Part shown: positions 1,224 through 5,075 of the stretch, piece by piece
Layout of the letters: every line of letters starts with the position of its first letter
How positions within the stretch are numbered: the stretch's first letter is position 1
Virus record (IMG/VR): IMGVR_UViG_2663762849_000004
Span: 1 to 5,993 of that record
Origin: a virus
Taxonomy: Duplodnaviria > Heunggongvirae > Uroviricota > Caudoviricetes
DNA: 5,993 nucleotides
Reading direction: 5' to 3' (one strand)
Notes under the pieces: model-generated
Seen by the model: the letters and a program-made list of their open reading frames with translations, nothing else
What the model was told of the DNA's origin: nothing
The model's database searches: none
Program-made: the position numbers and the translations under genes

Positions 1224-1520
1224 TTATACCTCTGAATCAATATTAATTTGGTGACGGGCGATGGTTTCAGCCATGTAGCGGATGTGTTCTGCCATGCGTT
1301 CCTGAAAATCGACATCGTCATCAAATGCACGGGAAATAGCTTTTTTGCTGGCCCCGTGACGTTGCAGATTATCGATGCATAGCGATTCAAACAGGTGTTG
1401 GGGCAGACCTTTTTCCAGGTCGTCTGCCAGCTCAGCTTCAGTTTCTTCACGGGCAATTTGCTGGTAGTGTCGTGCCCATGACTGCTCTTCAATGCGATCG
1501 GGGATAAGCCAGGCATTCAT
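1224..1520 (-). CDS. gam: Gam, host RecBCD nuclease inhibitor, short isoform only (98 aa)
   Basis: The translation [26 protein letters not shown]...[20 protein letters not shown] is clearly related to the lambda GamS region but diverged more than Bet or Exo. ATG at 1520..1518. An in-frame TAA two codons upstream excludes a long Gam isoform. TAA stop at 1226..1224, 5 nt from the bet start. Confidence 0.9.
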
Positions 1521-3589
1521 GATTTATCACCTCCGAAATTTTCAAGCCTGTTGGCAATCATGATGGCGATATCAGGGATTGCTGGCGCTGTGGCTATACA
1601 TGCGGGGTTGGCGCACAAACCATAGACGGCGGCAATCACGAGCTGTCTTTTCCAGTCGAGAGTTACTGGCTCAGAATTGGCGTCATCGCCGGACGTATCA
1701 CTGCCTGGCTCGTTCTGAACAACGGTTTCGCCCTCCTGAGCGGCATCAACAGAGTTTTCCTGAATGATCTTCTCCTCAGTTTGTGCTGAGTCTTCTCCAT
1801 CAGCGGCGTCATTTTCTCCAAAAGTTTCTGTGTAAGTGCTATCGCCCATTACCGCACTACAGTCAGGGCAGTTACCCCCGCCAGTCTGACCACAGACGCG
1901 GCAGTTTTTTTCCAGCTCCGGTTGCGCTACTGGCCCTGGCTGTTGCTCTTCTGGCCCGTTTTGTTGCGTATCCGGGCTGTTTTGTCCCGCTTCTGGGGCA
2001 ATTTGTTCCACTTTGGACTGATTCTGGTCCTCAGTGTCGCGAGTCTGGATCCCCTTCACCCACTTCGGATCAGCAGGGTTACTGATGCCTTCAACGAATT
2101 CTCCACGCGAGGCAGCCAGTAATTTGTCGGCATCGACTGGATTTTTTGGGGGGATGTTTTCCCTGGCTTTATTGAGTTCCTCCCTCAGTTCCTGGTATTT
2201 CGTTTCTACAGATGAGACATTTTCCAGTGATTGCGTGTCCTCATTATGTTTAACTGGAATTTCTTCCACTGATTCAGGCGCTGCCTGTTCATTAGCCATT
2301 GTGTCCGATGCTTGTTGCTTTTCTTCATCGCCATGTTTTCCTTCTGCTGTTCCGCGCTGCGGCATCGGTGCTGATGAGCGACCGCAGGCAATTTCCACGA
2401 TTTCCGGATCCGGGTTAGCGTGATCGGTTTCGGTCAACACTTTGTTGAGATATTCAGTCACGCGTGCCGGGATGGCCTCAATGCCGATTGGTGCTTCTTT
2501 CACGGAAGCCACCACAATGGCGCGGGAATAATCCAGCCCACCGGGCATGGCGATAAATTTGTCGCGAAAAACAGAAAAGGGCGGCTTATTCTCTGACACG
2601 ATTTCTTCAACGCGTTTTGCGTGTGCTGGGTGCAGGTTATAAATATCCACATCCATTGAACGGGCCAGAACGCCGGTGGCTACATCTCGTGCGAGTGATG
2701 TCTTATCATGTTTGAATCCTTCACCACGATCGGTAATATTTCCGCCGCCAGCGTTAGCACCGGAAGGCGTACGGGTAATGCCTGAAACATAATTTCCGTT
2801 CTGCCATTCTTTTGTCAGCAGGCCCTGATCAAGGTAGTCAGTTTTCATCCAGGTGGAAATGAACTTGTCGAATTCAGCCGGGCTGATGCGATGATTTGCA
2901 GAGTGGGGGAATGCTTTCCCTACAGATTCAGCCAGGCGACTAAGGTGATAGTTCGTCAGTTTATCCAGTTCATGATGCGCGGCGCGCACAGCAGTAAGCA
3001 GGCTCTGAAGGTAACTGTCCTCTGTGTCCATCTCCATACGGATCACGTTATTGCGTTGTTCTGGTGTGGCATGATGCCGGTATTTTCCATCTTCATCTTT
3101 GCTGAATAAGAAGAGGTGAAGGAAGCGATGAGTAAGGCTCAGAGTGGCGACGGGAATTTCACACTCAGAACAGTCATCGTCGCTGTCCGGGGATTCGCTT
3201 TTCTCCACATCATCCGGAATAGTTCCGTCCAGGTTATCGTTGTCATCGCCAGCAGTTGTGGCATCTTCACCGTTGATGTTGTCATCGAAGGGGATAGCCA
3301 TCATGGTGATGCCATCGTTACCGCCTTTTTCATAGCGGTTGCAGAATTCAGTATCAAACACGCCTTCCGGTGGAAGGTCATTCACAACGGGTAAATGGAC
3401 GCGGATGGGTTTTTTAAAATCCTCTTCGTCAAATCCGGCATCGTCCATTGCAGCAACACCGCGTGATATTGCAACCGATAATTTTTTTGCTGTGCGCCAG
3501 TAAAAACCACCTTTAATCCCAAGGCGTTTTCTGACTTTGTCATTTTTGGCTTCGTAATATAGTGCAATTTCTTCTTTATCAGCGTTCAT
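1517..3589 (-). CDS. Hypothetical 690-aa protein of unknown function: basic N-terminal region, acidic tract, central globular region, Q/E/P-rich low-complexity segment, CxxC-x7-CxxC motif, hydrophobic C-terminal tail
   Basis: A 2073-nt uninterrupted ORF on the same strand as the Red genes. ATG at 3589..3587 is preceded by GAGG 7 nt upstream. The TGA stop (1519..1517) overlaps the gam ATG as ATGA, implying co-transcription and translational coupling. Plus-strand ORFs inside this span are short antisense shadows. I recognise no family. Confidence 0.8.
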
Positions 3590-3681: not shown

Positions 3682-3870
3682 TTATCCAGCCGGTGTTTCG
3701 TTATTCAGGTACAGCGATACTTTTTTTAACGGGAGGCATTCACCGGGGATTTTTTGTTCGTCCCTTACCTGAATGCAGGATGACTTACTGTCATAAATTC
3801 CGGTAATCACATTCTGCGGCTCACCCGTTATAAGAAAAACGGTCATTATCAGTGCAAACGCTGAAGTCAC
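3682..3870 (-). CDS. Hypothetical 62-aa protein with a hydrophobic N-terminal segment (MTSAFALIMTVFLITG...); GTG start
   Basis: ORF with GTG at 3870..3868 preceded by GGAGAA at about -8. The start overlaps the stop of the upstream ORF as GTGA (3867..3870). An alternative internal ATG at 3846 has no RBS. The short length keeps this call uncertain. Confidence 0.45.
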   Translation of the reverse strand: MTSAFALIMTVFLITGEPQNVITGIYDSKSSCIQVRDEQKIPGECLPLKKVSLYLNNETPAG

Positions 3871-4055
3871 TGCTGTTCTCCGATAATACCAAGTTCAAGA
3901 AGGGCAATTCTGGAAAGTATGGAATTATCATTGAGAAGATAAGGTTCATATTTTCTCATCTTAATGGCATCTTCAGTAAACTCCCGGTTACTGAGCAGAA
4001 CTCCAATATCAAAACAACCTTCAGACGTATTAACGTTTGGTAATAACGTTTCCAT
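3867..4055 (-). CDS. Hypothetical 62-aa protein (METLLPNVNTSEGCFDIGVLLSNREFTEDAIKMRKYEPYLLNDNSILSRIALLELGIIGEQQ)
   Basis: ATG at 4055..4053 with GAGGA 7 nt upstream. The TGA stop at 3869..3867 overlaps the next start. The six-frame track extends this frame to an ATG at 4202 (111 aa), but that extension has a poor RBS, runs through the inverted-repeat segment and has Arg/Cys/Gly/Pro-rich non-protein-like composition. Confidence 0.5.
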   Translation of the reverse strand: METLLPNVNTSEGCFDIGVLLSNREFTEDAIKMRKYEPYLLNDNSILSRIALLELGIIGEQQ

Positions 4056-4072
4056 TATCGCGTCCTCAACAA

Positions 4073-4222
4073 TGAATTTTGTGATGCAGTGCCTGGTGCC
4101 TCCAGGTGACGTTAACCAGTTAACAACTAACGCCGGGTCAGGGGACGATGACTTTCCGTGACATCCTGTCGGTTTAACTGTTCCGCGTGCGCATAGCCGC
4201 ATTCACCGCATCACAAAATTCA
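4073..4222. repeat. Pair of inverted repeats (15 bp perfect, 18/19 when extended) bounding a ~112-bp internal segment
   Basis: TGAATTTTGTGATGC at 4073..4087 is the exact reverse complement of GCATCACAAAATTCA at 4208..4222. Extended to 4073..4091 and 4204..4222 the arms match at 18 of 19 positions. The interior holds two GTTAAC sites 8 bp apart (4111..4116, 4119..4124) and a small CCTGG/CCAGG hairpin (4092..4106). Confidence 0.6.
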
Positions 4223-4267
4223 CTTTAAAAAGGGCGGACATCAGCAATCGGCAAACCGATGTCCGCC
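4221..4267 (-). terminator. Candidate rho-independent terminator for minus-strand transcripts
   Basis: A perfect 10-bp GC-rich stem (4233..4242 GGCGGACATC pairs with 4258..4267 GATGTCCGCC) with a 15-nt loop. On the minus strand the stem is followed directly by C-UUUUU-AAAGUGAAUUUUGUG (complement of 4232..4212). The plus-strand side has no U-tract. The loop is longer than typical. Confidence 0.45.
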
Positions 4268-4506
4268 AAGGGCTACACACAGCAATGTTGTTATTCACAA
4301 CCGGAAGCGCACGGTCGAAGAAATCTAACGACAAGCCTTCAATGGGAAAGAGTCTTCGCCGTGCACTTTCGTGTTGTACCCTGGCTTTCAGGGTAATGTC
4401 TGTTCAGTAAACTGAGAGTGCCGGAACTTACCCGTGTCCGGCGCACGATCTCCACCTCACCCGTGGAGAACTCCTCAACTACAAACCCCGTAAGGAGAGT
4501 GAGTTT

Positions 4507-4716
4507 ATGACACAAGAAGAAAAAGTGATGTTTCTGATGCGGCTGGCTGTCGATACCTACAACACACAATTCAGGGAGAAAGATATACCTCAAAAGGCAG
4601 TTCCTGCCGCGGTAGATAAGGGCGGTGCTATTGCCGTATTTTACGATGCATTTGAATCATTTTTTAATGAAAAACTCGACGCTGTTAGCGGCTTCGGAAC
4701 ATCGAGTAATAAATAA
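4507..4716 (+). CDS. Hypothetical 69-aa protein on the opposite strand to the rest of the operon
   Basis: ATG at 4507 is preceded by a strong RBS, TAAGGAGAG (4491..4499), 7 nt upstream. The ORF runs to TAA at 4714..4716. It converges on, and overlaps by 32 bp, the 3' end of the minus-strand gene 4685..5044. The competing minus-strand ORF 4339..4593 has junk-like composition. Confidence 0.45.
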   Translation: MTQEEKVMFLMRLAVDTYNTQFREKDIPQKAVPAAVDKGGAIAVFYDAFESFFNEKLDAVSGFGTSSNK

Positions 4717-5044
4717 CGTTCATTACGGTTCTTAAACAACAATCAGTGGGCTTGATGTTGTTCTTTTCAAGCTCACTTGCCATCACTTCCATTATTCTTG
4801 CACTTACACGAATTATTTGGTGGCTGTAAGCGATGCAACTGTCGCTGATATTGCTGTTTATTTCTATTACTTCATTTTCACCATTAGCATCAACTTCGGA
4901 TGCGCTGTTTTCATTATCCTGTTTCAGTGCTTTTTCTGCCATCTGGATGCGTGTCAGCGTTGCGGAATTTGGGCTAAGTCGATAAACCTGTCTGGCATCT
5001 TCCAGAAGCAGGGCGATAATGTGCTTCAGTTCTGTTTCGTTCAT
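4685..5044 (-). CDS. Hypothetical 119-aa protein (MNETELKHIIALLLEDARQVYRLSPNSATLTRIQMAEKALKQ...)
   Basis: ATG at 5044..5042 with GGAG 6 nt upstream. The track's 126-aa version starts at a TTG at 5065 that lies inside the RBS. No family recognised. Confidence 0.6.
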   Translation of the reverse strand: MNETELKHIIALLLEDARQVYRLSPNSATLTRIQMAEKALKQDNENSASEVDANGENEVIEINSNISDSCIAYSHQIIRVSARIMEVMASELEKNNIKPTDCCLRTVMNVIYYSMFRSR

Positions 5045-5075
5045 AGTTAACTCCGGTAGTTGCAATTTATTAATA

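Follow-up and report, generated by a model that had tools for sequence, protein, structure and literature searches.

The inverted repeat that brackets positions 4073-4222 of the window (the whole 5,993-nucleotide stretch of DNA that was analysed) specifies a long-range helix in minus-strand RNA. We consider it likely that this helix, referred to here as P1, is an intercistronic RNase III processing site at which a DicF-like small RNA (sRNA) is cut away from the dicB message, whose 5' end is set in this way. Splitting of the joint DicF/DicB transcript matters for the amount of each product that is made. The segment is largely explained by earlier work on the dicBF operon of Escherichia coli K-12, and the window represents a new copy of it in another prophage. 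Our additions are modest, consisting of a structural description of the stem and of a link to a domain related to the STnc100 family of prophage RNAs.

A minus-strand RNA helix between the DicF-like sRNA and dicB

All recognisable genes of the window lie on the minus strand, which is therefore the sense strand of a single long early-left operon of a lambdoid prophage. The 5'-most part of the RNA carries several small ORFs (5965-4685), which are separated from the inverted-repeat segment by ~400 nt of non-coding RNA. From there the order, read 5' to 3', is the DicF-like sRNA with its terminator, the inverted-repeat spacer and dicB. The dicB gene (3867-4055) encodes 62 amino acids, matches PF05358 over its full length (3.7e-38) and begins with an AUG at 4055 that is preceded by a Shine-Dalgarno sequence, GAGGA, at 4067-4063. 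Cell division is inhibited by both DicF and DicB, which are encoded by prophages and also act on metabolism, phage resistance and the virulence of enterohaemorrhagic E. coli (EHEC). On the 3' side of dicB follow a DUF1482/YdfD-like gene (3682-3870), a 690-aa ORF with a RecE N-terminal-like domain (1517-3589), gam and bet, and, at the edge of the window, presumably the beginning of exo. The match of the 690-aa ORF to the N-terminal domain of exonuclease VIII (RecE) is weak (3.5e-10); this ORF contains long acidic low-complexity stretches, and it occupies the place that kil and cIII have in lambda. Antisense to the operon, a 69-aa plus-strand ORF (4507-4716) has a good Shine-Dalgarno sequence and no Pfam match, and overlaps the 3' end of the minus-strand ORF 4685-5065.

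A repeat search of the window recovered the two arms as 19-nt sequences (4073-4091 and 4204-4222) lying 112 nt apart. They match at 18 of 19 positions (95% complementary) and perfectly over the first 15, exactly as the sequence-only reading had described them. This was the only inverted repeat of 19 nt with no more than 1 mismatch and a loop of 3-200 nt in the window, and no comparable repeat arose in 200 dinucleotide-preserving shuffles of it. The single DNA mismatch, A4088 against G4207, becomes a G.U pair in minus-strand RNA and an A.C opposition on the plus strand. With 2 further nucleotides on each arm, the minus-strand RNA helix reaches 21 bp, in which the 5' strand AGUGAAUUUUGUGAUGCGGUG (4224-4204) pairs with the 3' strand CACUGCAUCACAAAAUUCAUU (4091-4071). 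Folding of the minus-strand RNA, which had been proposed as a check on the suggested long-range stem, came out in its favour: P1 closes the minimum free energy (MFE) and centroid structures, and its 21 contiguous pairs are present in both of these as well as in the alifold consensus. The minus-strand fold, closed by P1, has a free energy of -72.4 kcal/mol (z = -4.57), compared with -61.6 kcal/mol for the plus strand.

Two other pairings were considered and rejected. The 5' arm can also pair with 4522-4542 (86%); P1 is nevertheless retained when the window and K-12 are folded globally, and a separate local hairpin (4302-4371) accounts for the upstream RNase III site. On the other side of P1, the terminator U-tract together with the neighbouring AA (4225-4231) can pair weakly with UUGAGGA (4063-4069), which includes the dicB Shine-Dalgarno sequence. 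This pairing comprises 7 bp, is rich in G.U and extends P1 after a 1-nt bulge; a cleaner extension of P1, UUUUUA/UAAAAA, is seen in the class of elements preceding a 77-aa ORF. Sequestration of the dicB Shine-Dalgarno sequence by the U-tract was rejected, the pairing being weak and G.U-rich in the dicB class and lacking conservation in the other classes.

We gathered relatives of the segment with the motif CACCNGGAGGCACCNGGC of a small internal hairpin (P4, described below), which lies outside the arms and thereby avoids biasing them. A search of one genome per species together with viral contigs returned 268 matches, 164 of which (125 distinct cores) also had a closing helix and, suitably spaced, the 5' partner motif GGUGAAU; a stricter pass, which required full flanks as well, left 121 distinct elements. 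Many matches to the 18-nt motif in high-GC genomes, those of Streptomyces for example, were due to chance and were removed by requiring the 5' partner motif. For the analysis of P1 we aligned 29 distinct members of the subfamily that has the P2 hairpin of the window, drawn from E. coli, E. albertii, E. ruysiae, Shigella, Citrobacter, Lelliottia, Scandinavium, Pseudescherichia and phage contigs.

Compensatory changes on both sides of the helix were found at 14 of the 21 P1 pairs in these 29 relatives, where such changes had been named as something to look for. Across the alignment, 97.7% of P1 cells were paired, compared with 34-40% when the 3' partners were slid by 1-3 columns, and none of 500 shuffles reached the observed percentage paired or the observed covariation score. 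RNAalifold independently returned the same P1, along with helices P3 and P4 and a 3-bp helix closing a variable arm. At least 5 unrelated arm sequences maintain a helix of 16-22 bp, and the divergence of the 5' strand is illustrated by variants beginning GUGAAUUUUGUGAUG, AGCAGGCUUUAAGG and ACAGACCUUGCAAUG. The P1 cells of the 29 relatives included 47 G.U pairs as against 4 A.C oppositions, indicating that selection acts on the minus-strand RNA rather than on the DNA duplex. Taken together, the strand bias of G.U pairs and the covariation support the earlier proposal of a long-range stem in the minus-strand transcript, serving as an RNase III site or a riboregulatory domain.

The absence of a convincing coding frame between the arms, also remarked on before, is borne out by the relatives. 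A 111-aa ORF (3867-4202) would extend dicB into the segment, but its frame is not maintained in relatives, and it was rejected on the grounds of their in-frame stops at varying positions; likewise, coding by the segment was rejected given element lengths that differ among relatives by non-multiples of three.

Probable RNase III processing of the dicF-dicB spacer

A megablast search found that the spacer of the Qin prophage of K-12 MG1655 is homologous to the whole segment (87.3% identity, window 3944-4237). In K-12 the spacer is immediately preceded by a bona fide dicF (76.7 bits) and followed by dicB. Similar places number >10,000 in 4,628 of 5,426 E. coli genomes, where dicB is annotated, and functional phages also carry the segment, unannotated.

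Passages in two later articles (PMC5069750 and PMC9438474), both of which cite Faubladier, Cam and Bouche (1990), attribute two 3' ends to DicF in K-12: the terminator yields a 53-nt form and RNase III a 72-nt form. With dicF at 1649382-1649434 of NC_000913.3, nucleotide 72 corresponds to 1649453 (72 = 53 + 19). This is the U at the junction of GAAUUUUGU and GAUG, which occupies position 15 in the 21-bp helix, 12 bp away from the base. The equivalent end in the window falls between 4213 and 4212, inside the 5' arm, with a tolerance of ±2 nt as it is derived by arithmetic on two secondary sources. Table S1 of Gordon et al. (2017) lists a site at 1649470, labelled 'intergenic dicF-dicB' and 'known: yes', with 26 reads in the rnc mutant and 0 in both wild-type replicates; this site, which was derived from only 26 reads and from a coverage ratio accurate to tens of nucleotides, lies 8 nt inside the 5' arm, within the K-12 spacer. 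A review likewise places the dicA-dicF-dicB intergenic region among RNase III substrates. The homology to the K-12 spacer and the position of the published 72-nt DicF end within the 5' arm thus lend further support to the RNase III option among the earlier proposals.

[quoted passage not shown] At 21 bp, P1 has the size of about two turns of double-stranded RNA, and the pairs between the cuts predicted for the window are G-C and U-A, in keeping with the G-C rule. A one-nucleotide bulge lies opposite the predicted cut in 11 of the 29 long-stem variants and might restrict or shift cleavage.

We propose that P1 would form on the early-left minus-strand transcript whenever polymerase reads through the DicF-like terminator. 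RNase III would then cut the 5' arm ~12 bp from the base, between 4213 and 4212 (±2 nt, as projected from the K-12 homologue), and a second cut, expected from the 2-nt 3' overhang rule, would fall in the 3' arm between 4081 and 4080. Cleavage at these positions would free the DicF-like sRNA from the dicB message with a 19-nt 3' tail, would leave dicB with a 25-nt leader and a 5' monophosphate, and would excise a core of ~132 nt (4212-4081). RNase III dependence and the 72-nt product come from the K-12 literature; the cut positions in the window, the cut in the second strand and the effect on dicB expression are our predictions. The published RNase III event now has a concrete structure that is supported by covariation.

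The sRNA itself (4227-4281) ends in a 13-bp terminator hairpin followed by a U-tract at 4231-4227. The hairpin has a perfect 10-bp core (4233-4242 with 4258-4267), which the MFE structure extends to the 13-bp stem. The sequence-only reading was correct in recognising a terminator hairpin here, and its identity can be refined to the 3' hairpin of a DicF-like sRNA; the accompanying statement that the right arm overlaps the U-tract does not hold, the arm being 4 nt and the extended helix 2 nt away from it. The match to the Rfam DicF family (RF00039; 4232-4281, minus strand) scored 29.5 bits, which is below the gathering cut-off of 48. It is the 3' hairpin that matches DicF, whereas the 5' target-binding part reads CUGUGUGUAGCCCUUGGCGG as compared with UUUCUGGUGACGUUUGGCGG in K-12. 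Since this variant 5' part recurs in four further loci (L012, L133, L200 and L210), the sRNA may represent a separate paralogue of DicF that has other targets.

A second long, imperfect hairpin (4302-4371; 16 bp, a bulge and 2 bp) lies upstream of the sRNA. Its K-12 homologue is a helix that carries, in its 3' strand, the RNase III-generated 5' end of the 190-nt DicF form. Together with P1, this helix means that the DicF-like sRNA is bracketed by two RNase III-type helices. Some E. coli prophages (L012 at ~1330-1580 on the minus strand, L238 and L202) carry a short-stem element, with a 5' hairpin of the GCGGC type found in the window, directly 5' of a DicF-like sRNA. This order is opposite to that of the window and suggests that the sRNA and the structured domain are shuffled as modules.

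The conserved core and its relation to STnc100

The 112 nt between the arms adopt a conserved multi-helix fold and are not filler, and P1 closes them into a ~112-nt five-way-junction domain that lies 5 nt upstream of the dicB Shine-Dalgarno sequence. The first internal hairpin, P2 (UGCGGCUAUGCGCACGC, 4185-4201), is near-invariant in sequence within the long-stem subfamily. It is followed by a variable arm (4135-4184), in which a 3-bp closing helix (4184-4182 with 4137-4135) covaries (alignment columns 45-47 with 112-114; AU 13, CG 8, UG 4) and the enclosed stretch differs in length and sequence among relatives. P3 (4108-4134) consists of a 9-bp helix (4134-4126 with 4116-4108) and a 9-nt loop which, with the closing U.G pair, forms the conserved run UUGUUAACUGG; compensatory changes were found at 5 of 8 tested P3 pairs. 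Two GTTAAC sites and a small hairpin had been pointed out between the arms, and all are present: the sites (4111-4116 and 4119-4124) fall within P3, in its 3' strand and loop, and the hairpin is P4 (CCUGG-AGGCA-CCAGG, 4092-4106). The P4 loop AGGCA is invariant, and a U-A pair is swapped for G-C in 9 of 29 sequences. The 3' strand of P4 continues straight into the 3' strand of P1; this passage, along with a 4-bp hairpin after the P1 5' strand, gives the junction a tRNA-like layout. An RNase III site does not require the conserved core formed by P2-P4, which is unexplained by the processing model.

When scanned with cmscan, the segment matched the Rfam family STnc100 (RF02076) at 4023-4234 on the minus strand. 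The score of 27.2 bits (E = 0.0057) is below the cut-off of 47, and the alignment spans the full model (positions 1-206), with the arms falling on the closing helix of the model. On the same scale K-12 scored 34.4 bits, another copy (locus L002) 30.8 bits and bona fide STnc100 copies 68-165 bits. The core motifs GGUGAAU and CACCNGGAGGCACCNGGCAC are common to the 121 distinct elements, many of which score as STnc100. In the window, cmscan flagged non-canonical pairs where the 5' hairpin GCGGCUAUGCGCACGC was aligned with the CCCCC/GGGGG helix of STnc100. Given a score below the Rfam cut-off and the absence of two family features, the window element is a diverged relative, not a member, of STnc100. 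STnc100, PasD and EcOnc27 are prophage sRNAs of Salmonella, EHEC and enteropathogenic E. coli (EPEC); STnc100 overlaps the Hfq-bound sRNA EcOnc27, PasD is an Hfq-associated sRNA detected by RIL-seq, and bona fide STnc100 copies have been grouped with PasD. Bona fide STnc100 copies are located downstream of stx2 or near Q, and those at loci L014, L057, L216 and L217 have phage tRNA genes within a few hundred nucleotides; ARAGORN found no tRNA or tmRNA gene in the window. No link between the dicF-dicB spacer and STnc100, PasD or EcOnc27 was found in the literature searched.

The length of the closing stem is bimodal across the 121 distinct elements, measuring 4-11 bp in 86 and 14-22 bp in 35. 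Among the short-stem elements, 75 of 86 have a 5' hairpin of the CCCC type, and an own terminator follows 43 of these 75. Long-stem elements (P1 of at least 14 bp) are of the GCGGC type in 35 of 35 cases; none of the 35 has an own terminator within 110 nt, and all lie inside operons, directly before a Shine-Dalgarno sequence and an ORF. Among the ORFs that follow are those for DicB, for a 77-aa protein and for several small hydrophobic peptides.

These observations bear on the possibility that the main role of P1 is to close an STnc100/PasD-like regulatory domain, with RNase III cleavage being incidental or absent and with Hfq-dependent base-pairing, binding of a protein or of ribosomes, or control of dicB translation in cis as candidate activities. 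The alignment to the whole STnc100 model with the arms on its closing helix (and 34.4 bits for K-12), the core motifs shared by 121 elements, the association of EcOnc27 and PasD with Hfq, and the covariation of P3 and P4 around invariant loops all speak for such a domain. However, this explanation does not account for the fact that P1 measures 14-22 bp in exactly the operon-embedded subfamily and 4-11 bp elsewhere, nor for the published rnc-dependent processing in K-12; moreover, the element has no terminator of its own, and its Rfam score is under the cut-off. We therefore regard it, in this exclusive form, as quite improbable. It is only in that form that the two ideas are rivals, and processing and a regulatory domain are otherwise compatible. 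Relatives with a P1 of 4-11 bp cannot be RNase III substrates, indicating that the domain must have another function too; likewise, since the short-stem relatives keep the core, the core must do something besides processing.

Processing at P1 could itself connect the two. If RNase III cut both strands of P1, the ~132-nt STnc100-class core (4212-4081) would come free with a 9-bp stub, a length that matches the 4-11 bp closing stems of stand-alone family members, and this could constitute an operon-embedded route to production of such an RNA. This is a tentative extension of the processing model that we consider rather unlikely. If it is true, DicF and DicB would not be the only products of dicBF-type operons, which would also specify a third one with its own function, and, if the core is released, its tRNA-like topology and the tRNA-gene neighbours of its relatives would point to a tRNA-handling or RNA-binding factor.

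Two readings at the level of DNA had also been offered for the segment, and neither agrees with the RNA-strand-specific, compensatory changes of the arms. To the first, a miniature inverted-repeat transposable element or other insertion with terminal repeats, we give next to no credence. A 150-bp unit with 19-bp inverted repeats at its ends would fit such an element, as would a copy number per E. coli genome of 2 (median) and up to 9, and mosaic junctions at or in the arms (4071 and 4080). However, the flanks (CAACAA/TGAATT and AATTCA/CTTTAA, the slash marking the boundary) share no direct repeat, and hence there is no target-site duplication. Every examined copy lies in the early-left context of a prophage, in the same orientation, before dicB or an equivalent small gene; arm lineages differ by compensatory changes (the 47 G.U versus 4 A.C noted above), unlike sequence-conserved transposase sites; and the interior is a covarying RNA fold, not filler. 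No copies at unrelated chromosomal sites with flanking duplications and matching empty sites were found. The second, in which the arms are half-sites for a DNA-looping or DNA-bridging protein (and to which we add a cruciform), has only the symmetry of the arms in its favour and is barely conceivable, given that it is pairing and not arm sequence that is conserved across lineages, that the G.U excess is strand-specific, that the plus-strand fold is weaker and that no regulator gene or promoter adjoins the segment.

Breakpoints of mosaic homology fall at the edges of the element, both in the window (4071, 4080 and 4237) and at another locus (L244, 1080-1130). Phages PhiR5_2 and phiSTEC1589-Stx1c match the window from 4071 onwards, and K-12 matches it over 3944-4237. 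In E. coli GN02050 and at locus L139, dicB lies directly behind a Rha-family gene without an inverted-repeat domain, and homology stops at 4080.

Comparison with known systems

The same structure recurs across many lambdoid prophages before different small genes, several of them toxic-looking, and the dicF-dicB spacer is tied to the widespread STnc100/PasD/EcOnc27 family, which is itself without an established function. In practical terms, the outcome is a set of precise predicted cut sites and a candidate excised RNA; current understanding is not overturned.

The closest known system is the dicBF site of K-12 Qin, which occupies the same position, between the DicF terminator and dicB, has the same downstream gene and forms an identical 21-bp helix save for one pair (U.G versus C-G). 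The window nevertheless represents a different lambdoid prophage. Its variable arm differs, its sRNA is divergent in the 5' part and scores 29.5 bits as DicF compared with 76.7 bits in K-12, genes other than ydfABC are found upstream, and gam, bet and presumably exo on the downstream side.

STnc100, PasD and EcOnc27 resemble the window element in the arrangement of closing helix, 5' hairpin, variable arm, P3 and P4 and in their residence in lambdoid prophages. In contrast to the window element, with its GCGGCU..GCGCACGC hairpin and 21-bp closing stem, STnc100 has a CCCCC...GGGGG 5' hairpin and a closing stem of 4-11 bp. The window element, unlike STnc100, lacks a terminator of its own and has an sRNA on one side and a coding sequence on the other.

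Intercistronic RNase III sites are also found in phage T7 (R1.1-R5) and in lambda (the N leader and sib), and the processing stalks of rRNA belong to the same class of substrate. Like P1, these sites place about two turns of double-stranded RNA between functional units of a long transcript, and their cleavage splits the units and fixes the 5' and 3' ends of the neighbouring RNAs. They have no sequence homology to P1 of the window, and whereas each T7 site is a simple hairpin interrupted by an internal loop, the helix of the window closes a large, conserved multi-helix domain, which cleavage would excise in one piece.
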